Assembly: GCA_030141605.1 (NCBI GenBank)
Contig: JAQGDQ010001815.1
Location: 1-24,444, forward strand
Direction: 5' to 3'
DNA from: Tubiluchus corallicola
Taxonomy: Eukaryota > Animalia > Priapulida
Length of the DNA: 24,444 nt
Shown here: positions 2,137 through 24,444 of the stretch, piece after piece
Layout: each line of letters opens with the position of its first letter
Numbering within the stretch: position 1 is the stretch's first letter
Made by a program: the position numbers and the translations under genes
Notes under the pieces: model-generated
What the model was told of the DNA's origin: nothing
What the model saw: only the letters and a program-made list of their open reading frames with translations
Database searches by the model: none

Positions 2137-2190
2137 GTAGGTTGATATCATCTGAAGTTTGTTAATAGAGAAGATGAGAAGGAAAGAGCT

Positions 2191-2284: not shown

Positions 2285-2378
2285 ATGAAATTTCAAGGAG
2301 ACACAATAATACATGCTAAGATGGTGCATTATATTACATCATTATTCGAAACAATACCATTGCCTCGTGTTTTACTAG

Positions 2379-2517
2379 GTTGCACAAATCGCTCGGAGAT
2401 TTCGACTTCTTGCAAGGAATTTTCAGCGACAAGATCGGTACGCAGAAGATTACTCACGATGCTTTGCAGGCAGAGGCCCGAGGTGACTACAAGACGGCTT
2501 TGGCACTGTATGAGCAG
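2379..2517 (+). CDS. PRKDC: DNA-PKcs exon 3, LHKSLGDFDFLQGIF...AEARGDYKTALALYEQ (FAT)
   Basis: actAG / GTaggg. Matches human LYRSIGEYDVLRGIF...AEARSDY. Phase 2/0. Confidence 0.93.
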
Positions 2518-3821
2518 GTAGGGGGTCATGAATAAATTTTTAAACAATTTAGTGAGCTGTTTTTTAAGGATTCAATGATTCGGTGTTGTGTTTGATTTGT
2601 ACAACTTCTTTGCACAGTTCCAGGAGTTGTGTACTGTGGCAGGGCCGGCACGTGTCTCATTATCAAGGCCAACTTTCTTATATGAGACACTGAACCGGCC
2701 AAGGTATCTTAGCCACTTTCAGATGAATGCGAAGCATTGGGTTACTCACTTATTGAATTTTTCTGCCCAGCTGCACGGATATGCCGTTTAGAACACCATT
2801 TAGCTTTACCATAGAATTCATTTCGTGAATATGTTATTTTGAATGTCATTTAGCGTTGTCGTAGATCAGTTTTATCGTAAAAAATTAGAAGTCGAAGTTA
2901 CTTGTGCTCTGTTGTGACGTCACAATATAGAAATTGGCCAAAAGTTATTATATGAACAACAATAACAAAAACGAGACCTGCTTGTAAGGTTACGTCACAA
3001 GCGAGTAACACAAAAATAGCTGAAGAGCAGCAGAAAAATCTGCCCAGAGGCATTTCTTCTGCCAGTCACTTATCCTTTTACAAACCAGTTTCTGCACTGT
3101 TTAACTGTCATTGCCAAACTTGCTGTAATCACTTAGTGGATGAGAAATTACGGGTTTTGTCAGTGGAATTTGCTTAATTAGTGGAAAGCTATAATATAAT
3201 TACTTTATAATATATACTAATACAATACAGATAGTCGTCAACTTAGGACACAGTTTCGTTTCAGTTAAACGCAAGTCTGACTCGTATGTTCAACTCGTGT
3301 GCCCCGTCAGATGATGTGTGTGTACGCGCACTAAATATGATGACGCCTACAGATTACTTTATCAAAACAGATTGCAATTTAGAGTAGTTTGCTTAAAAAA
3401 TAGAAAAAATGTGATATATTATTAGTTTTGAATGATTAATTAATTTTAAGTTGTAGTTTGGTCATAAAGTTGAACATTCATAAGTTACATAGGTCATAAC
3501 TCGACAACTGCATGTAATAATAATAAATCTACTGGCTAATTCTATCACTCTATTTAAAAATCTATTAAAAAGTCTACTTTTTTTGTTGCTGGCCTTGATT
3601 CTACTGTTTGCTACTGTGCAATATTTCGTGCTGTTAATGTTACTAGATGAAAAAGTTATTTAATTTTTTTTGTTGCTTGCTAGGTGTGTAGTGAAAAACC
3701 AACTCACTGCTAATCTAACGACATCTGCTGGCCATGTAAACATAATCTCTACCTTTAAGCTTTGGTGATATTTGAGTTTCTGTGTAGTAAGTTTTACTGA
3801 AAATGTTATCTGCTTTTGTAG

Positions 3822-4010
3822 GCAACCAGTAAGGATTCTTGGCCAGATGGTGCACCTTCTCAAGCTGAACAAGATCTCTGGGATGTCTCTCTTTTAAAAT
3901 GTCTTGATAACTTGACTAGATGGGATGCATTGAAGGAAATGACAGTCCGCGGTTTTGATGATAGTGAATTACCAAACTTAGACAAAGTGTGGACGGACAC
4001 ATATTATCAG
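3822..4010 (+). CDS. PRKDC: DNA-PKcs exon 4, ATSKDSWPDGAP...LDKVWTDTYYQ
   Basis: tgtAG / GTaatt. Matches human DWVDGEP...LNKIWSEPFYQ. Phase 0/0. Confidence 0.93.
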
Positions 4011-4736
4011 GTAATTAGATACTTTCAACGTTCGTGTCTCATGGCAATGTGTGGAAAAACTTCCGGTTATTTTTTCAATTTAAGGCGTAAATTGTGATAC
4101 TTGTTCCCCGAAATAGCAACTGCTGCATCGTTGCTAGAACTGCCTTAATTTCTTTTTAAGTAATTTTCTTTCATATGCAAACTTTGCCAAACAAGGACTG
4201 TATAGCAGTTTTGAATGCCATGACTAAACTTCAGTATCTAAATTGCGTTGCTGTAATATATTTATTCAAGAGAAAATGAGTGAGCACTTTTCCAAATTTA
4301 TATATGATTATAATATCATTTATAAGAGAATGAACTATTTGTTTTCATTATTAAAGTAAATAAAGCTATTTAAAAGACTGCAAATTTAATCAATAAAATT
4401 ATAATTCATGAAACCTGGCATTAACGTTGTGGAAATAAAATAAACCAAAAAATGTTCACACCATTTATCATATCATCGTAATAATAACTAAAATCAAAAT
4501 GAGAACGTAAACTATGTTGTAGCTTACTTGCTGCTCAATTAATTCGCCTTTGTATTTACAAATTGCAAGTCAAATTTATGATACTAGCTTCATTCGTGGA
4601 TGAATTGAATCACCTAAAAGTGGCATCATGTGGTAGTATCTCCAATTTGTTTTTTTAACTATAATATACCAGAAAAGGAGCCAGTTGCAGATTTTGCAGA
4701 GTTGAGAATTTTCAAATCTCATCTCACTTTGTTTAG

Positions 4737-4961
4737 GAAAATTATCTCCCGTGTTTGTTACGATCTGGCGTTAAAGGGTTAATGGAACTGCCGAACGACC
4801 AATCACTGTTGACATTCGTCGACAAATCGCTGGGTAATCCGGACCGAAAAGCGCTGTTAGAAAGCTGGTACAGCGAGGAGCTGGCTATGCTGTATGTTAT
4901 ACAGAAGAATTACGATCGTGCTCGATACTACGCCACAAACTGCTTGCGCATTTTCCTGCAG
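4737..4961 (+). CDS. PRKDC: DNA-PKcs exon 5, ENYLPCLLRS...DQSLLTFVDK...DRARYY...IFLQ
   Basis: tttAG / GTgggt. Matches human ETYLPYMIRS...DQSLLTFIDK...DRAKYY. Phase 0/0. Confidence 0.94.
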
Positions 4962-6551
4962 GTGGGTTTATTCATTTCTCACATTTGTGTTACTCGTACT
5001 AACTTTCTTCATTTTTCTATTTATAATGAATTTCTTAGCTAGAACTGTTGCTTTCATAAAATTTTGTGCACAGTGGCGACTGGTAGCTAAAACTACTGGG
5101 GGTGCTGCTTCAGAAAATTTCCAGCTATTGTTTTGATGCTGTGTAAAACGTAACTAATTAATGTAATGTAAATGTTGTAGTTATGTTTGAAGATCTGGTG
5201 TTGAACGGTCTCTTTTCTTAACTGCAACTTTCTCATAGAGAGACAACTATGAAAAGTTGAGCTGTTGTAATTCACTTACAGTCAGAGAACTTGTTTCTTG
5301 GGGATGCAAGGCGTCCATTATTAAATCATTTATGTTTTAAGCACACACGCTAAGTTTACACTTTATCACATCAAGGATATGATGGTACACGGTAAGCACG
5401 TGGCAATTATTACTGTGATAAACACAGTACTTTTCTACCTAGCAGCAGACTGCAGCGTGTTATCTCAGATATGTGCGTATGGCCATTGAACACCATGTTC
5501 CTTGGGCTGTGAAGCAAACAGTACTACTCTCACGTGCTCCAGTTCCGCACAAGTATAACAAAAGGAGGACGAAAGAAAAAAGACATATTATATTGAATAT
5601 TATCTATAATAATGAGTGAGAAATAGTGGGTGCTGCAGTACCACAGTACCTATACACAAGCCACCACTCTTTATGCATATATGTTTTTGCAAATGCATTT
5701 GAAGCCAAAGCCTTTACCTGACAATACATGGCTTCCTTTTTATAGAACAATTTACCCGATGCCGTGAGCTCCTGTTATTCACATAATTCTACTTAATTGA
5801 TTGAAAGTTTTATTTATCTCTATGCGGGTACCACTATGTTTTAACTTTTTTAAAATTTTCTCTTATTTGCTGGTTTAATCATTTTTAGTTCTTAATATGA
5901 TAGGTGCTTAATCATATTTACAGTTAAAAATGCAATATATTTTTCCGTACGAACGGATGACGTAACATTATGAACTTTCCCAATTTTTTCTCATAAATGC
6001 TGAACTGCCTATCTGATCAACTTCAGTTATTTATATTTATACGACTTAATCAATTATAAAACTATAGTAGTAATGTTAACATCATTGAAAGCTTGAAGCG
6101 TACACTTGTAGATTGTGTATTTGTCATCATTAATTTATTATTGAACTTGGTGGAAGTTTTTAGTTTACGACTTCCACTTTAATGTACTATAATAATATTG
6201 CAATTTCGGTACTTCTTTTTTATAGTCACAGTCACTGAAGCGACATCTGGAGGATGAAATGCAAAGTTCTATGATTAATCATTTTTAGTTCTTAATATGA
6301 TAGACGTTTAATGAATGATGAAGTAATATTGCCGCTAATGCACCAAGGCTTGCTCGCTGTTTCCCTCGTCAAATTATTGATTATTCGTGAAATTGTTTGA
6401 ATACGAGATTTGAAGTTTTAATGAAAAAGTAACACTGTTTACACAAGCTTTTTATTGAAAGCAACATCATTATTAAAACTTTGCTTGTCCAATTATTTTA
6501 ATGCTCATTTGCTATATTTCGTATTGCTATATTTCGCTTGTATTTGTGTAG

Positions 6552-6660
6552 GACTGGGCAGCTATGGACACACTATTGGTGAACAATCGCTCGGCAAGAT
6601 TGCAAACTTTGCAGAAACTTACTGAACTGCAAGAGTTTCTCGATTTCATGGGCAAGAGCG
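6552..6660 (+). CDS. PRKDC: DNA-PKcs exon 6, DWAAMDTLL...LTELQEFLDFMGKS
   Basis: tgtAG / GTatat. Matches human SRLTKLQ...LTEIQEFISF. Phase 0/1. Confidence 0.92.
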
Positions 6661-7219
6661 GTATATTGTTTATTTTATTTGTATATTGTAATATTTGTGA
6701 TAGAGAGATAGGTGAAAATAGTTTAGTACTTTAGCAGCATTACTATGTTATTTATAATTTTTGTAAACTGTAACACTTCCTGTACATGTAACTCTTGCTC
6801 TTTTTGGGTGCTTTCTTTAGAACGTGAGCAAAATTTGGAGGAAAAGAACTTTCTGATCCTCTTGATTAAGACTAATAATGTTTAATTATTAGATAAATAT
6901 TAATATTATTATTTAATTATTAGCACCTCTAAAAGATGTATGTTTACTATACTCGAAAAGTTTCTAGGTTTGCATGTTTTTTGTGGCATAGCAGATTAGA
7001 GGTTTATTTTCATTTATAGATATCATGTTGAACAAACTTGCCAGAGGTGCTTGTGAAAATGATTATAACGATTGTGCTTTACTTCAATTCAATTACGCAG
7101 CTTAAGAGGAACAGAATTAATCAAGAAAGATTTGTTCAGCTAAACTTTTCTAAAGTCTGTTGGCTAGAACAGCTTGATATTTTGCTAATTAATCTTATTT
7201 ATATTATGTTTGCTTCTAG

Positions 7220-7331
7220 ACGATCACACATCTCTGTCGTCGGCTCAGTGTCTAGTCAACAAATGGGTGAACTGTTACCCGGACGCTGCCACAGATCCTG
7301 TTTCGGTTTGGGATGATGTTGTTGGTAACAG
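7220..7331 (+). CDS. PRKDC: DNA-PKcs exon 7, ...WVNCYPDAATDPVSVWDDVVGNR
   Basis: tctAG / GTatgt. Matches human [23 protein letters not shown]. Phase 1/2. Confidence 0.92.
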
Positions 7332-7380
7332 GTATGTAAGATGTAATAATGTGTTATGTGTTATAGTGTAATGTATCGTA

Positions 7381-8281
7381 CAGTGGTCGCCGCTTAATAG
7401 ACTCACTTTGGGACCGACGTGTTTTGACCAAATTAAACGAGTGAACCTATTAACCGATGGGTGTAGTATTACTGATATAGAAGTATCAGTCATCTGCTTA
7501 CTATGCACTGCAAATGTTTTAATGAGTTTTAGAAACGAAGTAATACCTAAATTTCTCTGTGCAGTTAAAAATTAGAAAAAATATTTTAAATTTTAATTTA
7601 GATAAGTGAATTAGCAATAAATTAAAAAGTATACTTTTCTAAGTCTGTTTATTTTCTCGCGAAGAAGTTGGCCCACAAAGTTCTCGTAATTATAAAAATC
7701 TGTTGTTGTGCATGACTAAAACAGTTCTGAATCGTCTGCTCACTTACATTGCTCTTATTTGCTGTACGATGTTTTATTCTTGTAAGTGACAAGGAATACC
7801 AGCTGATTACTGTACCTGCATCTTTGACTGTTAACGCATTATGCCCGAAAGCGTGATTTGCAACTAGAGCATCAAAAGGAAACCGCTAGTCAAGTGATTA
7901 GATGTTTAGCTTCCAGAAATTCTTTGGGTAACAGTGGGCGAGCGGGTATAAACCAGATTTGAAGCAAAACCGCTACGCTAGCGTATTAGCGCATGATAAA
8001 CGTACCTGCTTACAAACAAAACGATACTTAACATGATTGTTTCTGCATACATAGTGCACAAATAAAGAAATAAGGGAAGTAAAGATGACGTAAAAGTAGG
8101 AAAGGCTCTTTGGGCACCTACAAATGTCTTATTTTAAGTAGGTGAAGGAAAAATATTGAGTCAATTAAGCGAAGTTATTTGAGTCAATTACCGATAGTTT
8201 TTATATATATTTGAATACAAGCACCGTTCCAGACGTTTTTGAGTCAGTTAAGCGATTGAGTCTATTAAGCGGCGACTACTG
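7381..8281. mobile_element. pogo/Tigger-like MITE, 901 bp
   Basis: 25-bp TIRs with one mismatch (cagtggtcgccgcttaatagactca / tgagtctattaagcggcgactactg). TA on both flanks (7379-80, 8282-83). Subterminal tgagtcaatta-like repeats at about 8157-8255. Confidence 0.9.
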
Positions 8282-8826
8282 TATATTAAATTTAGCACAT
8301 AATTTAGTTTACTGTTTCATGCTTGGCCACCCAAGTTCCAAAATGTATAATAAATAAATGTCTTCACTCATTAGGTTCAATTAGTGCTTCGTTGTCAGAC
8401 TGCTACTAAACAGTGGTAATTTCTTAGTTTGTGCTGCAACACATTTGCAATTTTCATTTCTTTTTAAATTTTGTAAAGTGTAAAAAATTTAGCTTTAGTT
8501 TAAAAATTATATTTCATATTTAATTGTGTATTTTTGGGTTACTCGCTTGCAAAGTAACTCTACAAAGATGTCTGTTTCACCGAGATGGTGGTTCTCGTTC
8601 TCATTCTCATTGTTTACGTCATGAGTTTTGTCAGTTTTTATTAATTTGGCTTTACAATACATTTACTCTGGATTGTAAATTTTTATGAAAAAGTGGATTC
8701 CATGACAACAGTAAATAGTGTTTGAGTAACCCAATTCTTAGCATTCTGGACTAGTTTAAAAATATTAGTACTTACCAGCATTTTGTCAATTCCGGATTTA
8801 TAGTTTCAATTGTTTGCTGTAAACAG

Positions 8827-8989
8827 GTGTTTGTATCTGGATCATCTTGCACAACATTTAACCGGGAGAGATCCCGAATCCCAGCTATTTTTGAGGGAGA
8901 AGTTCCAGTTGTTCTCTGCTTACCGGAAAAGTGCCACAAGGCAGGGCAACTTTCCCGTAGCACTTAAGTACCTGAAGATTTCTAAACAG
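8827..8989 (+). CDS. PRKDC: DNA-PKcs exon 8, CLYLDHL...SATRQGNFPVALKYLKISKQ
   Basis: aacAG / GTaggt. Matches human CFFLSKI...SARKQNNFSLAMKLLK. Phase 2/0. Confidence 0.9.
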
Positions 8990-9650
8990 GTAGGTAGTTC
9001 GTTTGTACGACATGTTGTACTTGGAAAGTGTTGGGGAAGTATGCAGTAATTAATAGTTTGAACTAAGTACTGGGTGTCCCAAAAAATCTACTTTTAATCT
9101 TCTTTCGACTGTGGCATATTTGTCAAGTTATGAATTTCATGTAAGATTTGGCATTTGAACGTTTCTTTACATTTCATGATTAACTGTATAATGCTAATAA
9201 ATAAAATCTAGCTATTGAATCCCTCGTGTAGGAAAGCATCAGTAAGCATCGTGTCAGCTGGTGCCGTCAAATGCGTGCCGACATTCCTATGTAATACATT
9301 CCTAATAAGGACAGTTGAAGATTTCTTGACTTAGTCATAGACCAATGAAAAGAAAACGGCATTTGGGAAACAATGTAAATCTGTCCATCATTCAATTTAC
9401 CAAGCAAAAACTGAAGAAATACATTGTTGCTGATAAAAAATGAAATGAAGTACAAGAGCTTTGAAAATGCCAAAACATTTTTTACAAATTGTTTTTCACT
9501 AGTAGTGTATAAAAAATCAATAGTGAAATTATTTTAGTGCGAATTGAAAAGACACTGGTATAATTTTACTATAAATAAGCTGTGTTACGTAATATTTACT
9601 GTTAAACTTGATCACTAACATTATCTCTATGATTGTCACATTTTTTACAG

Positions 9651-9792
9651 ATTCCGGCCAAACTTAAATCTAAAGAACTGGAGGTTAAATGGATCCACGG
9701 ATACGGCGACTATGTGCAACGGATGAGTAAGGATTTGACTAAGGATCCAATAAGCAAGATTAGTAGAATCATCGATACGTTCAGACAGTTTG
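9651..9792 (+). CDS. PRKDC: DNA-PKcs exon 9, IPAKLKSKELEVKWIHGY...DTFRQF
   Basis: ttttttacAG / GTattg. Open frame, phase 0/1 fits neighbours. VKWIHGY resembles human VSWVQSY. Confidence 0.85.
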
Positions 9793-10055
9793 GTATTGCA
9801 TTTTGTTACTAATAAATAATTTTTTATATATTATTAGCTACTTACTTTGACTATTTATTATTAATAATACTTGTTATTATGTTACTTATTTTTAGTCAGT
9901 TTTGACCCGTAGTGCAAACACATTTGGAAGCCAGGTATCGTAGTCATTGCATGGTGATTCAATCGAGTAAAGATGTCCATATTTTTGTTAAATTTAGTCA
10001 GGTATTTAGAGTTACATGGCGAAAACTGTGAGTTGTGTGTCTCAATCTCTTGTAG

Positions 10056-10249
10056 ATAAAGTTAAGGATTGTCTGATGTTGCTGGACAATGCTTCATTAA
10101 CAACAGATCATCATTTGCTGAGAAGCCGCTCCGTTGAGACGTTGGCTTCAATTCTGTTCACTGATGTAAAACTTTTGCAACAGCTTCCGGAGGAAACATT
10201 ACACCTGGTCATGAACATCGCCTGTGCAAACAGTGATCATACTCATCAG
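10056..10249 (+). CDS. PRKDC: DNA-PKcs exon 10, DKVKDCLMLLD...ANSDHTHQ
   Basis: tgtAG / GTatta. Open frame, phase 1/0 fits. Divergent FAT segment. Confidence 0.83.
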
Positions 10250-10708
10250 GTATTACAGTATATGTCGTATGGTTTGTAGTTTTTTCAAAGACTCTATGTA
10301 TGTGGTTGGCTGCTGGTATAAAAGTAATGAACAATGAAGACGCGATCTGGAAACATGGAAAAGAGAAGCACTGAAGTTTCCAAGCATTTTCTTATGTTAG
10401 ATATATAAGAAGCATTATTGCTTGCACTGCTTCCACTGTGCCTATGTCAGATGGCATTTTGCCTATGCATAATTTTTGAATACACTAGACTAATGTGTCA
10501 GCTTAGCTGCCGCTCTGATGAAATACATGCTGGAAATTGGCCAATTTCACACATAAATTTCGTCATGGTATTTTGAGACTGTGTGGCCTTGGGCAAAAAT
10601 ATATGTGTCTGTGTCTTCAAAACTTTTTTCTCATAAATGGATCTCATGAAAAATGCAATGCATTTGGCAAATTTAAAAAGTTATAAAGTTAATTTCTGTT
10701 TTTTACAG

Positions 10709-10862
10709 ATTATGAACGGTCTCGTACAAGCTGGGTACAGAGACGTCCAGAAAGCTTGTATTAGTAAAACGATGAATTCTGAATTTGTTGCTGCAAATTC
10801 ACCGGTTCATTTGGAACTGGCAAATTACTGCGATAAATTTCTCCGTGCCAAAGAAGATGAAG
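10709..10862 (+). CDS. PRKDC: DNA-PKcs exon 11, IMNGLVQAGY...LANYCDKFLRAKEDE
   Basis: ttttacAG / GTagta. Matches human LADFCDQQLRKEEE. Phase 0/1. Confidence 0.9.
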
Positions 10863-10879
10863 GTAGTACTGTTTAGTAG

Positions 10880-11396
10880 CAGGGATGAGAATTTTGCGCG
10901 GATACGCGGAATTCCGAGTTTGTGGAAGACCAGTAGTGCCATTTTTGTAAATCGCGTAAATTCGTTGAGAAAATTTTTACGAAGCCAGTACATTATTTCA
11001 CAAACTGACCGCTTGTTGGCAGACCGTCACTTTGTTTACAACACGTACGTCAGTGTAACCACGTGTATATCTCTATGTATAAAAATATAGAATCAATTGT
11101 GCGGAGTTATTTGAGTCAATTGCAGGCAGTTTTTATATACTTTTGCATAGGAGCGGCCAGTACTTAGGCGTTTTTGAGACAATTAGGTATCATGTATCTT
11201 TGATAGTTGGGTATTTTAAATTATGCATGAAACAAGGTAATTGATATTTTAAGTCCACTTAGAGGCTCTCTATGGTCACAAAATTGCAATTTGTTGCTGG
11301 TTCTAAGGGGGCTCCCTTGAACCCCATTGGGGGCCTATATAACCCCAAAACCCCCGGCCTGTTTCAGTTTTTTGCAGTTTGTCATTCTCATCCCTG
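10880..11396. mobile_element. Non-autonomous DNA transposon with CAGGG termini (hAT-like)
   Basis: 13-bp perfect TIR cagggatgagaat (10880-92) / attctcatccctg (11384-96). Direct repeat tagtag at 10874-79 and 11397-402. Confidence 0.75.
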
Positions 11397-11565
11397 TAGT
11401 AGGTTTAAGTACCTTTTAGTAACTTTAAGCTGTCTATTCTCATAATTGATATTTTTCACAATTTCTCGTATTGAAAGCAGCAAGCAAATTGTAATTATTT
11501 TGAGTTGAAATATTTTAAAATGGAAGTTGACCGTAAAGAATCATGAAGTACGTTTGACATTTCAG

Positions 11566-11729
11566 AGGCTGCGTACAGTTTTATGTTGCTGGATGGTTTT
11601 CCGGAAATCGTGATAAACTCCACTCTGCATTCCATGAAGCACAATTCAGCCGAAGCTCGTCAAAGATTTCCGCGCTTGCTGCAGCTGGCCGAGCTACATC
11701 CTAGTGTTTTTAGTAAATTTATTAGTAAA
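11566..11729 (+). CDS. PRKDC: DNA-PKcs exon 12, ...NSAEARQRFPRLLQL...FISK
   Basis: ttcAG / GTgagt. Matches human NSNEARLKFPRLLQI. Phase 1/0. Confidence 0.93.
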
Positions 11730-12471
11730 GTGAGTAATTTCAGATGGTAGCAAATTTGTTTTTTGTTAAAGCTCGTTATTTATTAATGAATGATTCCAGC
11801 TGTTATTTTTTCAGCCAGACACAATCACTGAAAATGACTCTGAAAATGTGAAGTTTTAAAATATGATAATAACTGCTGTGATTAATGGTGGAAGACCCGA
11901 TTAATCGATTATAAGCGATTTGGATTTTTATTTTCAAATATTGACAACTTTTTTATCCGCCGATGCAAATTGATTGCATTACCTAATGCCATTTGCACAT
12001 ATTTTTTCCAAAAAACCGGAGGAAAATCGCGCGATAAACAGCTATCATTGTGGCGAAATCAAGCAAGGTTGTATCATCTTTGTACAGTAACTTATTGTCC
12101 TGCTGAAGCTGCTTAGACACGAAGGTTTCTCATCAATATAACTATGTGGTTTTTGTAAACAAAAATAAGCAGGTATATGCACTCAACGATGACAACAGTT
12201 TCATTGGCTGTTTTTAAACTCCAAACTAATAAGATAAACTCATTTAGAGCTTCCTTTTTACGTTGTACTTTTTACTTTTCTAACTACATTGTGATTAAAA
12301 CAGCAGGACTAAGATTACAAACCTCTTGTACTCATTGTGTTTAAAAATTTCAAAATTATTTTTTTTACTCCTAAAAACTGTTTATATTATCGAATCCGAT
12401 TACTCTTTTATGAAAGTGAAACCGACGTCCCGCCAATAGTGATTAATTCATCTGTCTCGTATTTTCTGCAG

Positions 12472-12594
12472 GCTTCCGAGATTCCATGTTGGATGTTCAT
12501 CCAGTGGATTTCTCAAATGCTGGCTCTATTAGACAAGCCAGAATCAGCCATCGTTCAGGAAATCTTGTTAGAAATTGCTCATTCCTATCCTCAG
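12472..12594 (+). CDS. PRKDC: DNA-PKcs exon 13, ASEIPCWMFIQWISQMLALLDK...YPQ
   Basis: tgcAG / GTaaat. Matches human VPCWQFISWISHMVALLDK...YPQ. Phase 0/0. Confidence 0.95.
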
Positions 12595-13075
12595 GTAAAT
12601 CACTTATCATTGTAATTACCCGAAAGTTTTGTTTGTGAGCATTATAATCACACTGCATGATGGCTCAAGGTACAAACTGGATAAGCTCTTAAATATCACC
12701 TGTGTGACAGGTGTGCTGAAAAGCAATTACTATAGTGTATTCCTAAACAGAAGTGAAATTATTTATTTTATTTTATTTTATTTTAGTCAATACATAACCT
12801 TGCAGTATTTTCAGAAATTATGCGACTCATAACAAACAAAAGTTTCTTTTTCAATAAATAACAATTTCTGAGCTCGTATTAGCTTACTAAATTTTTTTTG
12901 CTAATTATTTTGGTACGTTTGAAGAACATTGGCATGTAGTCAGAGAAAATTGCAGCAGGATGGCGCCAAATACTAAGTTGTAGCCGGTAGATAATTTGTT
13001 TATTAATTAGTAAATTAACAAGTGCAAGGTCATGGAGTCACTAGTTATCGGTGTTTTTGGTTTTTGCTCCAAATG

Positions 13076-13134
13076 AAAGTAAAAGTAAAGTAAGGTAAAG
13101 TAAAGTAAGTAACGTAAAGTAAAGTAAAGTAAAA
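13076..13134 (+). repeat. (AAAGT)n microsatellite
   Basis: Imperfect aaagtaaaagtaaagtaaggtaaagtaaagt... run. Confidence 0.85.
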
Positions 13135-13235
13135 CTCTTATTAATAGCAACACTTTTGCGGCGTTGAGAAATGGTCAATGATATCTGCTATGTAGAGCAG
13201 TAACTGTTTCATATTGTTGATGCGTTTACATGCAG

Positions 13236-13412
13236 GCGCTGGTGTACCCGATGAAACTAAGCGTTGAAGGCTTAAGGTTCGATACCAGCACGCAAGGGAA
13301 GCAGCAGCGTGCGTTCGTCGAGAAATTACAGGCGATTTTGGACAAAGTGCCTCTTGTGATGAACTTCATCCACGCGTTGGAACAGCTCAGCGCCCCAGAA
13401 GCATTGTTTAAT
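13236..13412 (+). CDS. PRKDC: DNA-PKcs exon 14, ALVYPMKLS...FIHALEQLSAPEALFN
   Basis: tgcAG / GTatgt. Matches human AIVYPFIISS...FINALDQLSNPELLFK. Phase 0/0. Confidence 0.94.
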
Positions 13413-13658
13413 GTATGTACTTTGTGTTGCATTGTTTAATGTATGTACTTTGTGTTGCATTGTTTAATGTATGTACTTTGTGTTGCATTGTTTAATGTAT
13501 GTACTTTGTGTTGCATTGTTTAATGTATGTCTTTGTGTTGCATTGTTTAATGTATGTACATTGTGTTGCATTGTTTAATGTATGTACTTTGTGTTGCATT
13601 GTTTAATGTATGTACTTTGTGTTGCATTGTTTAATGTGTGTACTTTGTGTTGCATTGT
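13401..13658 (+). repeat. 28-bp minisatellite (9 copies + partial) spanning exon 14 end and splice donor
   Basis: Unit gcattgtttaatgtatgtactttgtgtt at 13401, 13429, 13457, 13485, 13513 (27 bp), 13540, 13568, 13596, 13624, partial 13652. Confidence 0.97.
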
Positions 13659-14132
13659 GTTGCTCGCCTTGAGCTTTTTTATAGACATGCATAACATCTT
13701 TGAAGTTTGCATTCATGTGAACGTTCTTGAATAAAGTTTGGTAAGTTTCTTTTGCATTGTGAAGTAAAAATATTGTGTTTTTAAATCACGGTAAGATGTT
13801 AGTAGTATGGAAGTGCTTTGTTTGTGTATCAATGGTGTTTCTATGTGACTTTCTTACTCTAAGGATACAGATGATGACAGAAAAATCAAGTCGACATTTT
13901 TTAGTGACATTCCTTGTGGTTGGACAAAATTATCCATGAATAAACATTTTCTAGCTTTTTAGCGCTGAACGATTTTTCATGAAGTTTAAGTTCACATGTT
14001 GATTTTGTAATGTTCATATTTGTTTTTCGAACTACGAAAGCCAGCCTTTCTTTTTCAGGTGATTTCACTTTTTGTCAATTAGTTTGATCTGGAATATTTT
14101 TTTTATTTTACGCTTGTTCAATGTTCTTGTAG

Positions 14133-14318
14133 GATTGGCTTGAGGAATTTGTGAGATTAATGCAAAAGAATGCAAAGAAAGATGCCTTAAAGAAATCGTA
14201 TCAGGCCATGTGTGCTGAACTTTTGCACATACGTGGTTCGAGTGAAACTGATACGATGGGAACACAGACGCCCCGGTCACAAGTTGAAATGGGTCAATAC
14301 AGAAAGCAATTTGCACAG
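14133..14318 (+). CDS. PRKDC: DNA-PKcs exon 15, DWLEEFVR...MGQYRKQFAQ (FRB-like)
   Basis: tgtAG / GTtagt. DW start and GQYRKQFAQ resemble human GAFRRKFIQ. Phase 0/0. Confidence 0.9.
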
Positions 14319-14491
14319 GTTAGTACATTCAGATACACTGTTCTCCCCGACATTTGGATTTAGATTTGTGTACGCGAGCAAAGCCATAATTTGCAATTTA
14401 TCTAATTAGTTTTAAGACAGTCAGTTTCGAATTTGATTACCTCGTACGTTTTACTAGTTTTCACTGTTTGCATTTTTGCTGTTATTTACAG

Positions 14492-14551
14492 AAATGTGGA
14501 AAGAAAATTGAAAGCGTCATTATTAAAGTTCTTGCCAAGCCAGTTACGCAG
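14492..14551 (+). CDS. PRKDC: DNA-PKcs exon 16 (60 nt), KCGKKIESVIIKVLAKPVTQ
   Basis: tttacAG / cag|GTattg. Open, phase 0/0. Fills the expected gap (human TFGKEFDKHF...). Confidence 0.8.
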
Positions 14552-14679
14552 GTATTGTACTTTTATTGATATTTCTTAGATGAATAATTTTCTAATTTTG
14601 TATTTAAATTTTCAACTAATCATGGTAATGTTTTTTCCTGAGTGCATAAGACATCACAAATGATGTTTATCACAAAGAA

Positions 14680-15285
14680 ATTGAAATTACCTCCTCATAT
14701 TCGTAATTCTAACTCTTTAAACATCTTTACATCTCGACTAAAGAATCACATGTATTTTAATAAGCGGCCTACTTACTTTTCAAGTGGTACTCGAAATTCA
14801 TCAGTACACCTTACTAGAATGAGAGTTGGTTTTTGTCAACTTAATTATGATTTATGTTATGTTGAGTAACTAATTAACATCTATGCCTGTTACAACACTT
14901 TGGTTTGGTGTTCTTTTAGGCAGTGCACCTTAACTTGTAATTGGAATGGCGCTGCTTTTTAAATTGGAATAAAGCCATAATTCCAATTATTTACTCTTTT
15001 ATTTATGGTTATAACGGGTCGCTGGTATCACCTAATTGTCAATGTGGTTCTACTTATCAAACAATCGGTCATTACTTAATTAGCTGCCCTCTTTACCGCC
15101 AGGCCAAACACGACTTATTTACAAATCTCTGCTTTTGTTAGCTTTTAACATCAATGTTTACAGTCTTGCATCAAATGAACTTGTACATTTGTTCCTGCAC
15201 GGGAACCATACCCTAGATAATTCTGTGAACACTCAAATTTTTGTTTTAGTGCTGTCTTTTATTTCACTCTATCACATAGAGGTCT
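14680..15285 (+). mobile_element. Decayed 3' end of a non-LTR retrotransposon ORF2 (CR1/L2-group-like)
   Basis: Broken frames read LPPHIRNSNSLNIFTSRLK...HLTRMRVGFCQLNYDL, SPNCQCGSTYQTIGHYLISCPLY (CxC-x8-H-x4-C zinc knuckle) and LFLHGNHTLDNSVNTQIF, typical post-RT LINE segments. Interrupted at about 14862-15005. Confidence 0.75.
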
Positions 15286-15422
15286 ATGTTACTCTTGTCA
15301 CATAGTAATGTTCATATTTATTGCAACTTTTTTGTACATTGTGGTCACCATTGTTCTGCATTTTTGCAGAATGTTCCTACATTGGTCACCATTGTTTGTT
15401 CATCAGCCTTTTTGTTTTCCAG

Positions 15423-15594
15423 GAATCTTTCTTGGATATACGTAAGCTGAAGCAGTCTATAGCAGTTGCGGTTAAGGAAGACTACAAGGAGTACAGGAAA
15501 CGAGGTGTATGTGGTCCCGGTACGCTGAAAGAGTACTGTACGTGGTTGACTGAGTTCCAGAGCTTGAAGTTTAGCAAAGAGTTGGAAATACCTG
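15423..15594 (+). CDS. PRKDC: DNA-PKcs exon 17, ESFLDIRKL...PGTLKEYCTWLTEF...ELEIP
   Basis: tccAG / GTatag. Matches human PGNLKECSPWMSDF...ELEIPG. Phase 0/1. Confidence 0.93.
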
Positions 15595-16050
15595 GTATAG
15601 TGTTTGCATTTTCTTCAGGGCTCCCCTGTAATGTGCAAATGAAAATTCACAAAAGTGAGAGGAAAGGTGTTTAGTACAAAAAGCATCTATTAATATCTTG
15701 TCCTGCGCCATACGTAACGCTGGTGATTACCTGTTGGTTGTTAGGCGATTCCAAATGAGACTGATTTCGTGACGCATTGCTTAAACAAGTTCGTCAATCT
15801 TTGATTTCTGGAGATAGAATGTGATAGGGATTATGAAAATATGGTAGCTTAAATAAGGAATAACATAATCGTCGAAATGTAAAAGCAAACTCATTAGTAA
15901 GTAGAAACATCAAGTCATTTGTCCGTCAGCTAAAAGTTTTCATTATTTAATCAGGCCTCCAAATAATAGCCGATTTTAGTTTTACTGTCATGTAGTTTGC
16001 CTAACTTAACCTCAAGATATTTCTTTTATTGGTGTTTTTTGTGTTTTTAG

Positions 16051-16118
16051 GTCAGTACACGGGGAATTCAAAACCGTTGCCGGAATACCATGCTAAGATA
16101 AAAGGCTTTGATGAAAAG
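16051..16118 (+). CDS. PRKDC: DNA-PKcs exon 18, [23 protein letters not shown]
   Basis: tttttAG / GTgtga. Matches human [23 protein letters not shown]. Phase 1/0. Confidence 0.95.
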
Positions 16119-16408
16119 GTGTGAACACACCTTAATGTTATAATAAAAAGGCTGGTTTATGAAAGTTTCAGCAGTTTCTAATAAACTTTCTACACTGTTA
16201 GATTAGATAAAAAAATTTATATAGGAGGGACTGTTTTGCTCCATTTCTTATTTGATAAATGATGCTGTTGATGACATCATCATCTAAGATGGTGGCTCCC
16301 ATGTTTTTCTGGCACTGTCCATGTCTTTTCAGTGCATAAATACACAAATAGGGCACAAAGTGGCAGCCCCATGCTGTACCAATTATGGTAATTATTTCCA
16401 CTTCTTAG

Positions 16409-16629
16409 GTAAAAGTTATGGACTCCCTACGGAAACCAAAACGAATCACCATCCGTGGCCATGATGAGAAGGAGTACCCCTTTCTGGTAAAGGGCGGAGA
16501 AGATTTGCGGCAGGACCAAAGGATAGAGCAGCTGTTCGAGATCATGAATGAAATCCTAGCAAGAGACCCGGCTTGTCTCAAGCGCGGATTAAGCTTACGC
16601 ACGTATCAAGTGATTCCGATGAATACCAG
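16409..16629 (+). CDS. PRKDC: DNA-PKcs exon 19, kinase N-lobe [43 protein letters not shown]...
   Basis: cttAG / GTattt. DNA-PKcs-type [13 protein letters not shown] motif with the ATP-binding Lys. Phase 0/2. Confidence 0.97.
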
Positions 16630-17104
16630 GTATTTTAAACGATTTTTTCTCACCAAATCGCTTAGTTTACACAAATCTTGACAGTATATTTCCTTCTGAT
16701 GCAGTAATAATTCAGAGGTAATTCTTAGTGATAAGAGTCTGAAAGATTAATAAAAAAATCCCGCAAAGGAGAAGACTCGATGTTTCCTTTATTTGTTGCT
16801 GAAGTATTTTCTTATTATTCATTGTGTGATAGCTTATTAATTACTTGCTACCTAATAATGATATTTAGTTAATGCCATCTGATTATGTGTGAAAAAGGTG
16901 AAAGAATTATTAACATATTAACATATGGTTCAGCAGTTTAAATCTTGCCTGGTTCACTTTTTTCCTGTGTTTATTCAACAGACATTTGCAATTCGTGATT
17001 GCCGCTTTTTTGTCGTATTGTTTTTTGTTTGTGTCAATGGATTGATTGGTATTTGTAAAACACAGAATGGACAGAAATAATTACATTGCAAAACATACAG
17101 TGTA

Positions 17105-17616
17105 CAGTCATACCTCGGTTTTCAAACGTCTCAGTACTCGTACAAATCGGTTTGCAGCCAGAAAAATCGAGTTGAAATTGTCTCCGTTCTCGACCAGAAT
17201 TTCGGTACTCGACCAATAGCCAAGCACGTGATGAATGCATGCGCGGCGAGTCGAGTAGAGCCGAGCTTAACCGACCGTGCCCGAGAGTAGTCACACACGT
17301 GTTTCTGATCTTGCTTACATATGCCATCACACTGCTACCAACACGTAAGGTTTTTTCATGCAGGAATAATTATGTTTTTCTTTCTAAGGAATTCTATTAT
17401 GTTTTTCTTATCAATAATATCACATCTACTGTTTGAATAAGCACTTTTGCATTATTATATTTCGTTTTAGTAATACTTTACAGTTCATTTGGTGCTTGAG
17501 AACGGATTATTTGCTTTTACATTATTTTTTATGGGAATAAATAATTCGGTACTCAAACAAATCGGTTTTCAAACATTTTTAGGAACGAATTATGGTCGAA
17601 AACCGAGGTATGACTG
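17105..17616. mobile_element. pogo/Tigger-like MITE, 512 bp
   Basis: 19-bp perfect TIR cagtcatacctcggttttc / gaaaaccgaggtatgactg. TA on both flanks (17103-04, 17617-18). Internal tc(a/g)gtactc..caaatcggttt subrepeats. Confidence 0.92.
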
Positions 17617-17673
17617 TATTTCTTCTAGAATAAAGCTGTATGCTTTTGTTCTACTTGATCATTTTCTTTCCAG

Positions 17674-17775
17674 GTTGGGGTTGCTTGAGTGGGTAGCTGA
17701 GACGTTTCCATTAAAGGAGTTAATTGCATCAGCAATGACCAAAGCTGAAGAAAGCTTTTACTACAAGTCTGACAG
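17674..17775 (+). CDS. PRKDC: DNA-PKcs exon 20, LGLLEWVAETFPLKELI...YKSDR
   Basis: tccAG / GTatgc. Kinase hinge, human LGLIEWLENT. Phase 2/2. Confidence 0.95.
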
Positions 17776-17888
17776 GTATGCATGCTTACTGAAATAAATT
17801 TTTGTTTTGAGTAGCGAAAATCTCTACTTATTAACCAATTCAATGCAATTCGGTGATTCGGTCTTAACTGGAACTACTTGTCTTACAG

Positions 17889-18053
17889 GAGACCTAGTGT
17901 ACTTCATACGGAGTGGGTGCAAAATTGTGCAAATAAGAAAGACCGTGATAATATAAAACTTGTCTATGGAAAGACGTACGAGATGCGATCAGCTAGTGAA
18001 ACCGTGCGGACTTTCAACCAAATCCAGGGCTCGGTGCCCTGGGATTTACTAAG
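17889..18053 (+). CDS. PRKDC: DNA-PKcs exon 21, RPSVLHTEWV...VPWDLLR
   Basis: tacAG / GTtcga. Matches human ETVTSF...VPADLLK. Phase 2/2. Confidence 0.92.
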
Positions 18054-18765
18054 GTTCGAGACTTAACCAACTTTCTGTTTTTTCCTAATGACTGCTGAAT
18101 GGCTATTAACTTTGATAGAAGCTTAAAATGCTTGAATGGAGGAATAATTGTTAAGGAAAGGCGAGGCAAATAGCTGTTGCATGCGTTTGGCAATTGAAGA
18201 CTTCAAGTTAAGTGTTGTTGTGCCTGATAAGTGAATGGAAGGATGACAATTGTGCTGAAACTCATTCTGGATGGTTTCATGGACCATACTGTTCACGAGT
18301 ACCTCTTGTTTACTTCGTTAATGGAATATGTACGTAAAACTAAACATTGGCAGGACAGTCCTGAATTGTCTTTCCGGTTTATTTATGTTTGATTGACTAA
18401 ATTGGAAGAGGTATTTTGGCCACACGCAGATGCATACATCTTGCCAGAAAGAACCCAGATGCAATTTTCTCATCAGTCACCCATTCACCTGCTTATCGCG
18501 CTTGCCATTGATTAACTTTAATTGAGGAGTACACGCTGTGGCCAAGAAGCCATTCCACTTGTCCTGTCACACTTGAAAATTTTGTTCACAATTTTGAGAC
18601 ATGCGGAAGGATAACTATAGCTGATAGTTACTACAGTGTTAACACTATTCACTAGAAAAACATGGAACTTAATAAATTAATTAATTAACATGGTTGGTTA
18701 ATTAAGTAAGTTTGCTTAATTTGCTTTTTTCTTTGAATGTTTGAATTTTTCATTTTCTTTATCAG

Positions 18766-18967
18766 ACGTGCTTTCCTGGGCCTCAGCGCATCCCCGGATG
18801 CTTTCCTGATGCTGCGAGCTCATTTCGTCAGGACGCACGCCGTGCTTTGCATCTGCCAGTACATCCTGGGAATCGGCGATCGACATTTGTCCAACTTCAT
18901 GGTCAGTCAGAAGGACGGAAGCATGATTGGAATCGATTTCGGCCACGCATTCGGTTCTGCCACTCAG
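18766..18967 (+). CDS. PRKDC: DNA-PKcs exon 22, catalytic loop and DFG: [14 protein letters not shown]...[14 protein letters not shown]
   Basis: atcAG / GTattc. Intact DRH..N and DFG motifs, near-identical to human. Phase 2/0. Confidence 0.98.
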
Positions 18968-19102
18968 GTATTCTATGGGTTTTTAGCACAGACTATAAAG
19001 ACTACAATTTTTGTGTTACTTTCTTTATTGTGCATTGGAGTTTTTCTTACCTTACATAAGTTTTGTCTTTGGTGTTTTTGGAGAGGTGAGCTAATCACCT
19101 GG

Positions 19103-19572
19103 CTCAGGGAAAATCCCTGAAAATACAGGCTATACTGGAAAGTCAGGAAAAAAGATAATTTGATAAAAAGTTAGGGAAAACGATGAAAATGGGGTAGAGT
19201 CAGGCAAATCGGATAGGGTTGCAAAAATAATCACTGCGAACTGATATTTTTCCAAACATATTTTTCAGGGATTTGTGTTCAAACAAAAATTCTTCTATGG
19301 CAGGCTCCCAGTTTCGATTTCTGTTCCAGAAATAATGATTGGATTAAGAAAGTTTATTTAATGTGTTTAGTGTAATTTCGTTAGCACTACTGCAACTGTG
19401 CCAACACATATATCAGTGAATGTCCATACACAAAAATGTTTGAATATGTATACTTGTAATGCAATTTCTACTTATCTTGGTCATGAAACATCAATGGAAA
19501 ATCAAAACTCTCAAATCAAAGTGCTCATTTGGTCAGGGAAAAGTCAGAGATTAAAATTTTGTGGGAACCCTT
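19103..19572. mobile_element. Degenerate MITE-like repeat with (g)tcagg(g)aa motifs
   Basis: Repeated tcagggaaa/gtcaggaaa/ttagggaaa motifs at 19104-19205 and 19532-19548. Ends gtgggaaccct, resembling a CAGGGTTCCCAC-type terminus. Left TIR not clean. Confidence 0.35.
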
Positions 19573-20351
19573 GTGCTGGCTGCATCCTGTTGGAATGAAG
19601 CGAAACCTGAAATTGCCCAACATCATTTCTCTCTGATGATTCTATTTATGTTCTCCTCGGCTAAATGTAGTTTTTTTATTCGAATCTCTTTTTCTTACTT
19701 TTATCTATTTTAAAATAATTTTATTTGACTTAGCATTTTGAAGTAAATACAATTTTTTTGAGTAAACACAAAAAAGAAATGGAAGGCAAAAAAATCGCTA
19801 AAAACTACTGTAAAACGAAAAAACGGGAGCAAAATTTTTGCGATTGTTGTAGGCAAAGTGACGTTTTTTGCAGCAGACCATTCTATGCGCCCATCATATT
19901 ACGTAAGTTTAAAGATTGATGGAAATTTGTGGCCTCTTATACAGAACAGACAAGAAACTAAAAGCTGCCACATATTTACAGGCACTTTTATTACTAGTTT
20001 GAAAGTATATGGCATCCGTGCCAAATTTTCATACATTTCCAACACATTTTTGTACTATTTTTTAAACTTTTTATACATCTATTCCGATAAAGGAAATAGA
20101 GAAGTTTTGTAATCATTTAATCACCAATTTAAATTAATTAACTAATCAGTTGTAATAAAATAATTAATTAACAGAGGGATTGCTACGTATTTGTTGTTTT
20201 TAGTCAAGTTTTTAGCCAAATTTCAAGAACGAGCGAGTGAATCACCGGATTTTTTTCTAAAACCCAAGCAGATGCTCAAGAATAACCTAATCACCAATTA
20301 TTATGCACAGAATGCACGGCATGCAAAAAAAAAACAAAAATTACAAAATAA

Positions 20352-20383
<32 letters not shown>
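20352..20383. repeat. (TA)n microsatellite
   Basis: atatatatatacatatatatatatatatatat. Confidence 0.9.
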
Positions 20384-20527
20384 CAGAACAGTGATAACAC
20401 AAAGTATCTGTCCATCATCGTGTTTTGTGTTTTTCTTTTCTTTAGTTTAGAATTCTTAGCTAATCGTTCCAATTTTTTGATCGCAGGAGTTACTTCCATG
20501 TTGTTTAATGCTTGTTGTACTTAACAG

Positions 20528-20716
20528 TTCCTCCCGGTACCCGAGTTGATGCCGTTCCGCCTGACGAGACAATTCCGGAATCTTCTCTTGCCTATGAAAG
20601 AAACTGGACTGTTACAGGCGACTATGATTCATACCCTGCGGGCGCTCAGACACGATCACGACATTCTGCTAAACACGATGGACGTCTTCATTAAAGAACC
20701 TCTAGTTGATTGGAAG
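20528..20716 (+). CDS. PRKDC: DNA-PKcs exon 23, [16 protein letters not shown]...[14 protein letters not shown]
   Basis: aacAG acceptor. Near-identical to human [16 protein letters not shown]...TMDVFVKEPSFDWK. Donor is non-canonical AAG|GCAAGG. Phase 0/0. Confidence 0.95.
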
Positions 20717-20893
20717 GCAAGGAATTTTTGTTTGTTTTAGCTGTGATTTGATTGTCGTGCGGAATGTAGGTGGCGTACAGGTCGTTGCAGAAGAAACAGT
20801 GCAGTAAAAACGTGCTGATATGCTGAAATACTCTTAACAAATCACAGTGAAATGCGACTGAGTGTTAATATGAGAATTGTGTTCTGATTTCAG

Positions 20894-20942
20894 CTCAACG
20901 CTATGAAGCAGATTGAAGCACAGGGTGGCAAAAATGACAAAG
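20894..20942 (+). CDS. PRKDC: DNA-PKcs exon 24, LNAMKQIEAQGGKNDK
   Basis: tttcAG / aag|GTatgg. Occupies the position of human NFEQKMLKKGGSW. Phase 0/1. Confidence 0.85.
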
Positions 20943-22115
20943 GTATGGTTTTTGCTTCAAAATACTGCCTCATTTTTTATATAGAAAAAACCCAAAACAA
21001 TGTCAATGCTAGAATATATCAGTATAAGTCATCAGAAGTAGAAATTCTTTCCACTAATTTGCTAGCGATGGGAGGTACCTGTTATTTATCTTCTTGAAAT
21101 CGGTGATGTGTTACTTGAGAAGGAAACAATTTTCTAGCAGACAATGTCAAAGATAAGAAGGCTGAGGGAAAAAACTGGACTTTTAAGTAGTGATTCTTCA
21201 TCTAACGACATTCGTGTTAAACTATTAGAAGCTGCGGGAAAAATTAGTACTGTGAGCGAGCTGCTAGCATTACGAACCAGTGCTGAGCGATTTTAAAACA
21301 TCTTCATTTGAAACACAAGAAAAAACTGTTCGTAAATAAAGTTTAAAAAGTTTGTCTTGAAATTTTATATCACTTGCATGTCGGATTATTACATACAAAC
21401 CGTTTCTTTAGGGTGAACTTTAAAGTTGCCTCTTTCCTCCCCTTTAAATTTGTAATAAAAGGCTTATTGTAGCAACTAAATAATCGAGCAGATTCAAAAT
21501 CAGATCCGATCCGGTAGAGAACATGATTTTGTAATGTATCGAATGGGTTAAGGTAATAAACTGAAGCACCAGTCCAGCTGTGACTGCAGTGATCTTTCGG
21601 GCAAGTATCGTGATTTGGTTCCATGTTAATCGCGTTATTGCACTGAACCAACTGTACCAGTAGAGGAATTATTTTGCTGCATTTTTGCCATGATTTAAAG
21701 TAAAACAAACAGATGTGCCGCTTTAATATCAGATCTTCTGAGGTTTTTGTTTGTTCTACTTAAGGTCGGCAGTCGCGGTTTTATTTCTGCTGACAATTAC
21801 AATTTGCTTAAAATACTTTTCAAGCGGTGCCATTGCATAGGAAAATTATCGGAAATGTGAAGAGACTTAATGAAACGTTGCCATCATCTCATCATATGTA
21901 ATTTTCTATTTTAAATTCTCACCAGAATGGCAAGTTCCGTCTTTAATGTCTGTGCCAAACACATAAGAATGTTCTGTATCTGTATAAATTATAATACCCA
22001 AATTTTAAATAGATTTAATTATTTTTATCATAAGTTTATTTGCAACTTTTACCTTTTTGATCTCAAAGAATGTTAGTGTTTGTCATTTAAGCGTTTATGT
22101 AAAATTTGTAACGTA

Positions 22116-22279
22116 TAAGTTAGTGTGTATTTAATGTAAGTTAATGTGTATTTAATGTAAGTTAGTGTGTATTTAATGTAAGTTAATGTGTATTTAATGT
22201 AAGTTAGTGTGTATTTAATGTAAGTTAATGTGTATTTAATGTAAGTTAATGTGTATTTAATCTAAGTTAATGTGTATTT
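22116..22279 (+). repeat. 21-bp satellite array, about 8 copies (left arm of inverted pair)
   Basis: Unit taagtta(a/g)tgtgtatttaatg from 22116, eighth unit starting at 22263. Confidence 0.97.
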
Positions 22280-22428
22280 TTATAAACACCCAGCACTTTT
22301 TCGTTAACTACTCTGAGACTAAGTACACGTCCACGTGTCAACGAATTTAAAGCTTCCAGTTTGCAACTGTGGTTTACGATTGTGCACATTGTGTAAGGTG
22401 AGAAAAACGAAAAAAACCCAAGGTTCTG

Positions 22429-22434
22429 TTTATT
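22429..22434 (-). promoter_or_regulatory. Candidate polyadenylation signal AATAAA for PRKDC
   Basis: tttatt on + is AATAAA on -, about 195 nt past the stop codon and inside the inverted block. Hexamer only; common in AT-rich DNA. Confidence 0.45.
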
Positions 22435-22628
22435 TGTGCTAAAACAATGCATTTTTGTCAGTGTGCAACACGTATATTTTGCTCTCGATTAACTGACTTA
22501 CTGTCCAAGCGCCGATTATATCGATTTATACGTGGTTGTAATCTCAATTAATTATTTTAATTGATTAATCGCCCATCACGAAATACGTATCATGCGCTAA
22601 TCAATACAGACTTGTGCACACGCAAGAA

Positions 22629-22833
22629 CTACATCCAACTCTCCCAGCCGACCCAAACTCGGCCGAGGACGTTTGGATCCGTGGCCTGATCCAGCAAGCA
22701 CGCAACCTGTGTCTCAACGCTTAGTCCGTCCTCGGGTTCCTGTGCACGGATGTTGCTATGGCGATCACCCATGCAAACGGAACACATCTGCTGGAAAGCA
22801 AAATGCCTCCTGTGCCCTAGGGAAAGTTCCGAC
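22629..22833 (-). CDS. PRKDC: DNA-PKcs terminal exon 26 (FATC domain + stop), on the opposite strand
   Basis: Reverse complement: tttttgcAG|g then [70 protein letters not shown]. Matches human [41 protein letters not shown]. Phase 2 start. Absent from the ORF track. Confidence 0.97.
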
Positions 22834-23626
22834 CTGCAAAAATGACCTTATTAAAAAGAACTTCAAAGTACTACAAACCACAATTAAAAATAAATTAAAA
22901 AGGTATATTTAACATCAATGTAGGAACAGGGTCTTAAAGAAGAATAGATAGCTAAAAAACAATAGCAAAGTGGTTTAGTGTGCACTTAGCAACTAGTTAA
23001 GCAGTGCTAAGTCTGGCTAGTAAATGAGTGGGTGACTGTTAAGAAAAGTGCTTTTGGCAGTTTCACTTTCTATACTGGTACAGCCATTACACCTCATTGG
23101 GAATCTTCATCTAGTCTCTATGTACATCTAACATGTTTGAGGCGCCTCTGCCGGTTCAGTATTTCAACCTAAATTTATTTTTGGTAATTATCTAGGTTTT
23201 GGTTCTGCCACAATCACATCTGCATCGAGTAACCCTTGCACCAAATGATGACTTCAGACTTATAAAGTGTCAAACTGTATTAAAAAAGGCAATGAATTCA
23301 ATTTTTATGTCCGATACATCATCGTTAACATTTTCGGCTCGCAACTAAAAGACAGTGATGCCAATTAATGATTATGGTACCTCAGTGAAAGAAGATTAGT
23401 TCTGTAAGTCCACAATAGGAATGAAGTGCCGTCATTAGATTCTACGAAGTAACATCATTTCTTTTGGTGATACAAAATTAAATGGGGGAGGAGACAAATT
23501 CTGAAGATGAGATGGAAAAGTAACCAAATGTTCTAGGAATGTAGCATGACAATTGAAATGTCTGTCAAAATGCCAAAGCACACGGCCTGACCACATAGAA
23601 TACTCTTCCAGGAAACAAACACCTAC

Positions 23627-23717
23627 TTAGTAATGTGAGCCGGATTTGCTCCCAACAGCTTCTTCTTTGCAACGGAAATCTTCTGTTTGGGGTACCAGTT
23701 CGTGTCTGCGTCATCTT
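23627..23717 (-). CDS. PRKDC: DNA-PKcs exon 25, on the opposite strand: (E)[29 protein letters not shown](K)
   Basis: Reverse complement: ctttcAG|aagatgac...attactaa|GTaggt. Matches human [24 protein letters not shown]. Phase 1 start fits exon 24; phase 2 end fits exon 26. Confidence 0.96.
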
Positions 23718-23925
23718 CTGAAAGAATGCAAATGAGTTATTGTGCGAAGTTAAGAACATGCAACAATGAAGTGACAATGGACATATTATTGACTAAAAAG
23801 TATGGCTGCCTATAATACCAATCAATCAATCATCTTGGACAAATGTCATCAATTTTTTTTTAAATTTAAAAGACACAAAGTCCCAGATAGGAGTGTACAA
23901 TAAGATGATACTCTTCCAGGGATTG

Positions 23926-24444
23926 ACACACATTAAATACACATTAACTTACATTAAATACACATTAACTTACGTTAAATACACATTAGCTTACATTAAA
24001 TACACATTAACTTACATTAAATACCCATTGACTTACGCTAAATACACATTGACTTATGCTAAATACACATAAACTTACATTAAATAAACATTAACTTACA
24101 TTAAATACACATTAGCTTACATTAAATACATAATAACTTACATTAAATACACATTAACTTACATTAAATACACACTAACTTACATTAAATACACACTAAC
24201 TTCCATTAAATACACATTAACTTACATTAAATACACACTAACTTACATTAAATACACATTAACTTAGATTAAATACACATTAACTTACATTAAATACACA
24301 CTAACTTACATTAAATACACACTAACTTAGATTAAATACACACTAACTTAGATTAAATACACATTAACTTACATTAAATACACACTAACTTACATTAAAT
24401 ACACATTAACTTAGATTAAATACACACTAACTTAGGTTAAATAC
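23926..24444 (-). repeat. 21-bp satellite array, 24+ copies, reverse complement of 22116-22279 (right arm, runs off window)
   Basis: Unit cattaaatacaca(t/c)taactta. More degenerate at about 23970-24140, more uniform distally. Confidence 0.97.

Follow-up and report, generated by a model that had tools for sequence, protein, structure and literature searches.

Reversed terminal exons of an animal DNA-PKcs gene beside inverted 21-bp arrays: probably a false join within a single intron array

The window, that is, the whole stretch of 24,444 nt that was analysed, contains the 3' third of an animal DNA-PKcs (PRKDC) gene, and its features are collected in Table 1. Starting from tblastn matches placed by hand, a splice-site search chained 24 coding exons on the plus strand without a stop over 1236 codons, ending in phase 1, which agrees with the sequence-only reading made earlier of this DNA. 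The donors of this chain are 23 GT sites and one GC site (after 20716). The exon positions, set by hand from tblastn and the sequence, are approximate, and the weakly conserved exons 8–11 have less sure boundaries. It should be noted that the GC-AG intron 3' of exon 23 (20716–20893) is required to keep the frame.

Table 1. Coordinates of the gene parts, arrays and repeats in the window
Feature	Position	Strand	Remark
24 coding exons, from the CC5/FAT region through the kinase domain	1179–20942	+	1236 aa
Exon 24, last plus-strand exon	20894–20942	+	phase 1 at end
Intron 3' of exon 24, 5' part	20943–22115	+	read-through gives 51 aa, then a stop
Left 21-bp array	22116–22279	+	7.8 units, two common unit variants only
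Suspect junction	22275–22279		TATTT (5 nt) common to array end and flank in public contigs
High-copy dispersed repeat, 3' flank/UTR	22361–22592		depth roughly 120–150x single copy (rough)
Terminal exon, FATC domain and stop codon	22629–22833	-	phase-2 acceptor
Penultimate exon	23627–23717	-	phase 1 in, phase 2 out
Dispersed repeat flank joined to satellite	23862–23929 (68 bp)		a diverged contig spans flank and satellite
Right 21-bp array	23930–24444	-	24.5 units, reaches the window's last base

The assignment to DNA-PKcs is supported at several levels. Pfam matches were obtained to DNAPKcs_CC5, PI3_PI4_kinase and FATC, with five of the six scanned peptides giving a match, and the families PF00454, PF19704 and PF02260, which together mark membership in DNA-PKcs, all scored above cut-off. 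The best PDB matches are DNA-PKcs structures, human chains included, far ahead of ATR, ATM and mTOR. The complete 26-exon model aligns with its homologues end to end at about 41–46% identity, and a tree of 27 proteins places it among the animals, within no named group. A search restricted to proteins of at most 2000 aa, a range that excludes full-length forms, returned no near-identical protein (seven matches, the best at 65%); in the same length range, one conserved exon used as the query gave 152 matches, at up to 80% among the 120 listed.

Exons 25 and 26, which complete the model, lie on the minus strand. They have AG acceptors, a GT donor and phases that fit the plus-strand chain, and they contribute the final 98 aa and the stop codon; the terminal exon corresponds to residues 4062–4128 of human DNA-PKcs (E 2e-22) and matches Pfam FATC at 46.7 bits, the cut-off being 25.3. 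The chained model, the splice sites and the FATC score thus bear out the earlier proposal that the final 98 aa are encoded by two exons of opposite orientation. The two reversed exons are intact, splice sites included. When the C-terminal 100 aa of seven homologues served as tblastn queries, minus-strand matches alone were obtained, and the window has no plus-strand relic of these exons. The T-A skew of the introns agrees with the minus strand of the block between the arrays as the sense strand (+0.106 vs +0.091), a result that does not discriminate between the rival explanations, and the skew along 20943–22115 added no information. The exon layout is seen directly, and the arrangement of exons and arrays in the assembled sequence is far beyond chance; the layout of the chromosome is a separate question. 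An Rfam scan of the 3' end had 0 matches at the gathering score, and a sigma-70 scan, of no relevance to animal DNA, stayed at chance level.

Two minor features accompany these exons. The high-copy repeat at 22361–22592 lies just past the stop codon and holds both candidate polyadenylation signals of the minus strand, ATTAAA (22561) and AATAAA (22434). A 13-nt direct repeat, ATACTCTTCCAGG, noticed by eye, flanks the penultimate exon at about 23600–23612 and about 23908–23920, probably by chance.

Four related loci were compared, of which two are informative. In L001 and L002, both of them metagenomic animal contigs, the two terminal exons share one strand; in L002, the kinase exon before them is present too, upstream in the same orientation and with the same exon ends. 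The others are L003, a homologue that is distant and GC-rich, and L004, where no exon matches. Judged by these sequences, the normal (ancestral) exon order is collinear. Reversing the block restores an ordinary gene, as had been suggested before, and L002 is collinear with the same exon layout.

The two arrays that bound the block are mutually inverted copies of the same 21-bp satellite, as the first reading had stated; they are up to 96% complementary over 164 nt, and their longest exact match is 63 nt. The right array has decayed units near its inner end and private changes in its inner half; the left array has only such unit variants as occur in the right array's outer half. A second reading of the visible right array as the origin of the left one was dismissed, since the best full-length register has 6 mismatches in 164. 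The right array is joined at its inner end to a dispersed repeat flank, whereas the same-side end of the left array has no copy of this flank (70 of 300 shuffles reach at least the same score, and there is no self-match), and its neighbour there, unlike the flank, is near-single-copy sequence. A short dispersed array on a conserved flank is also the point of likeness to tandem-repeat-carrying non-autonomous elements such as the oyster element Cg_HINE (PMC7492417); here there is one 68-bp flank only.

We compared the stretch 22245–23965 with contigs, not reads, of four public runs (X1–X4), three of them from sample S1 and one from sample S2; S1 is either the source animal of the window or another animal. 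Two further runs, X5 and X6, had a share of 0.00 and were left out of the comparison. In X1, the unique parts of the block form two haplotypes at a depth of about 80–96 each, and one S1 haplotype equals the window with 0 differences in six listed pieces (records 2, 5, 9, 12, 14 and 16). Since its unique parts make up two haplotypes, the block is unlikely to have a diverged second copy in S1, an argument that does not cover an identical one. Over the flank at 23862–23929, the depth is roughly 22 times that of single-copy sequence in X1 and 11 times in X2, depth not being equal to copy number. The same sample is very heterozygous: over 23194–23442 its two haplotypes (X1, X2) differ at 15 of 249 nt.

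At the two ends of the block, these contigs gave different results. The right junction is supported by X1 record 8, which lies on 23795–23959 and runs 30 nt into the array, a length equal to the overlap found at other forks of these contigs. At the left junction, X1 record 1 (567 nt, depth 82.4, the level of one haplotype) places its letters 431–567 on 22275–22411 with a single difference over 137 nt; the 430 nt before them are non-satellite and diverge from the left array. In X3, from a second sample and another study, a contig has a loose end of at least 255 letters before 22296; of the 30 visible, 14 of 21 agree with 22275–22295 (P 0.0003), against 1 of 9 with the satellite. The departure from the satellite is thus at the identical base in two haplotypes from two studies, and its absence at this junction is a direct observation in both, as is the 5-nt overlap TATTT, which would arise by chance with a probability of about 0.004 from the local composition. 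Graph cleaning may drop short links into repeats, and among the pieces listed for X1–X4 none spans the whole stretch. If the junction of the window were present in S1, at least 76 shared 31-mers and a mean depth of about 98–119 for record 1 would be predicted; because the observed depth is 82, the data suggest that the 22279/22280 junction is absent from S1.

On this basis, with a rough probability of 0.58, we consider that exons 25 and 26 appear reversed because of a false join at 22275–22280, either a chimeric or fold-back molecule or an assembly mis-join, that splits a single intron array. Most likely, then, the arrangement is not a feature of the animal's genome and the gene is an ordinary one. 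The animal would have exon 24 first, followed by an intron that carries a single 21-bp array (at least about 680 bp), then exons 25 and 26, and last the 3' flank. During copying, a strand that had reached a point inside the array would have switched to a site some 2–3 kb downstream (a distance that holds if there is one array), where 5 nt paired it with the 3' flank on the opposite strand; from there, exons 25 and 26 and the far half of the array would have been copied backwards, the record likely ending there. We infer the single array, the artefactual origin and the end of the record at 24444; the left array would be the 5' half of that one array.

Two properties of the arrays favour a single split array, namely the flank, present on the right array and missing from the left, and the unit variants, which in the left array are those of the right array's outer half. 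A false join is favoured because the left junction has no contig support while the right junction is supported. With a single array split by such a junction, the inverted repeat would be the result of the flip and not its template.

The form of the junction agrees with what has been described for amplification. Among chimeras of multiple displacement amplification, the main form according to PMC1855051 is an inverted join of segments less than 10 kb apart with an overlap of 2–21 nt, and the join seen here is inverted with a 5-nt overlap and, by the distance estimated above, lies within 10 kb. The likeness to these chimeras, also treated in 10.64898/2026.06.11.730069, where chimeric reads are given as a source of many misassemblies by standard long-read assemblers, consists in the inverted second segment, the spacing below 10 kb and the short overlap; it is a likeness in junction form, and a return to the left flank would lie beyond the window's end. 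Counter-evidence comes from PMC11660948, where chimeric contigs were almost absent: of two amplified HiFi assemblies, the first had a single suspect contig and the second had none. A false join is further weakened by three considerations: a short junction contig could stand outside the pieces listed, the X3 flank discussed below favours an insertion, and a real inversion would leave an identical junction.

This last point concerns the strongest rival, a rare germline or somatic inversion with breaks in the intron array and in the 3' flank and a 5-nt microhomology, giving a heterozygous DNA-PKcs null that lacks the final 98 aa. We regard it as possible but unlikely. Its junction signature would equal that of a false join, the species is very heterozygous (15 of 249 nt between two haplotypes), and null DNA-PKcs mice are viable and fertile (PMC6990542). 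The human inversions resolved in PMC7702065 had their origin in end-joining (8 of 13) or in microhomology-mediated replication (5 of 13), and the gene-disrupting ones resemble the present case in sharing few junction bases and in needing no long homology; those, however, are large human inversions verified in patients, whereas here there is one junction, known from assembled sequence, and its reciprocal would lie beyond 24444. We favour an artefact over a private null allele because the window stops inside the array, the exons are intact and the depth argument applies. In particular, the window halts in the array about 2.2 kb past the junction, as a dead-end chimera would if the record indeed ends there, exons 25 and 26 show no decay, and the depth of record 1 suggests that S1 does not have the junction, though one S1 haplotype equals the window in the six listed pieces. 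The mouse scid allele of DNA-PKcs loses about 83 aa. That allele is a nonsense point mutation, whereas the loss in the present case, if the inversion is real, would be of 98 aa and due to rearrangement.

The earlier reading had listed assembler mis-orientation and an inversion allele first among its options, and both remain the leading classes of explanation; the part that is not supported is a flip between two standing arrays. Against this mechanism stand the satellite missing at 22279/22280 in contigs of two samples and the left array having no copy of the flank of the right array. In its strict form, two real inverted arrays would exist, the downstream one polymorphic, and the block would have been reversed by the assembler or by one recombination event, which we consider improbable. 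In its favour, complementarity between the arms reaches 96% over 164 nt, the satellite belongs to a dispersed family, and, from the depths, the second S1 haplotype probably covers 22303–22360 with its left neighbour out of view. However, the downstream copy would need to be flankless, the haplotype nearest to the window has no satellite at this place, and a 164-bp array with a 1.65-kb block would be expected to fall within the span of long reads. With standing inverted repeats, both arms should occur in the non-inverted allele, and X1 record 1 and the X3 contig carry no satellite there, the second S1 haplotype being out of view.

The same observations bear on the proposal of a recurrently flipping ON/OFF cassette for DNA-PKcs, which we regard as hardly credible. 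The geometry of this one sequence is what speaks for it, but the left arm is absent from the other haplotypes and the arms share at most 63 exact nt, so that switching is unsupported. An exact match of 63 nt is short for homologous recombination in animals. No change-of-strand joint within the block was found among those listed, flips in the arrays being invisible in the compared stretch.

A result that goes against the false join comes from the X3 contig, whose nine visible flank letters match the left flank of the window at 5 of 9 in the TAT register (P 0.05); this register was chosen beforehand, among 14 printed. The triplet TAT occurs at each end of the left array (22114–22116 and 22275–22277). 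The left array might then be a polymorphic insertion, other animals too would have the block joined in this orientation to the left flank, the inversion would be shared or fixed, and full-length DNA-PKcs would be made by obligatory trans-splicing from an antisense transcript; trans-splicing, an option raised earlier, survives only if the left array is an unrelated insertion of this kind, and we think it quite doubtful. The intact exons 25 and 26 are in keeping with it. Nevertheless, about 5% of the window positions (1299 of 24,436, plus strand) reach at least 5 of 9 with these letters anyway, and record 1 starts at 22275 where a clean empty site would include the G at 22274, a weak, aligner-dependent point. 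The insertion would also require two occurrences of the satellite within 2 kb, one of them lacking the flank, together with a separate break.

A precedent for such splicing is Drosophila mod(mdg4), which trans-splices exons from opposite strands and has 3' exons opposite in strand to the common exons (PMC13490949). That locus is, by the same account, a fixed one with many alternative exons, separate promoters and intron motifs, whereas here there is a single constitutive tail in one sequence; the mod(mdg4) exon clusters have their own promoters and need special intron motifs. No report of a trans-spliced or inverted DNA-PKcs (PRKDC) was found in the open-access literature.

If the false join is the true explanation, the locus is a cautionary case in which inverted arrays are the product of a break inside one array and not its cause, and the annotation should join the 26 exons. 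A real private inversion would be a natural DNA-PKcs null allele of modest interest, and a shared one would make a core repair kinase dependent on cross-strand trans-splicing.

Other repeats were observed elsewhere in the gene. An intronic repeat of about 105 bp is present in two copies (8149–8250 and 11081–11185) with 77% identity. The DNA-PKcs gene also has two donor-site expansions, in exons 1 and 14. At 1306–1698, the 3' end of exon 1 and its splice donor are tandemly repeated into the intron, with a 62-bp unit in about 6 copies that creates several candidate donors. At 13401–13658, the 3' end of exon 14 and its donor lie in a tandem repeat of 9.2 copies of a 28-bp unit, which has TTTAATGTA in common with the 21-bp satellite.
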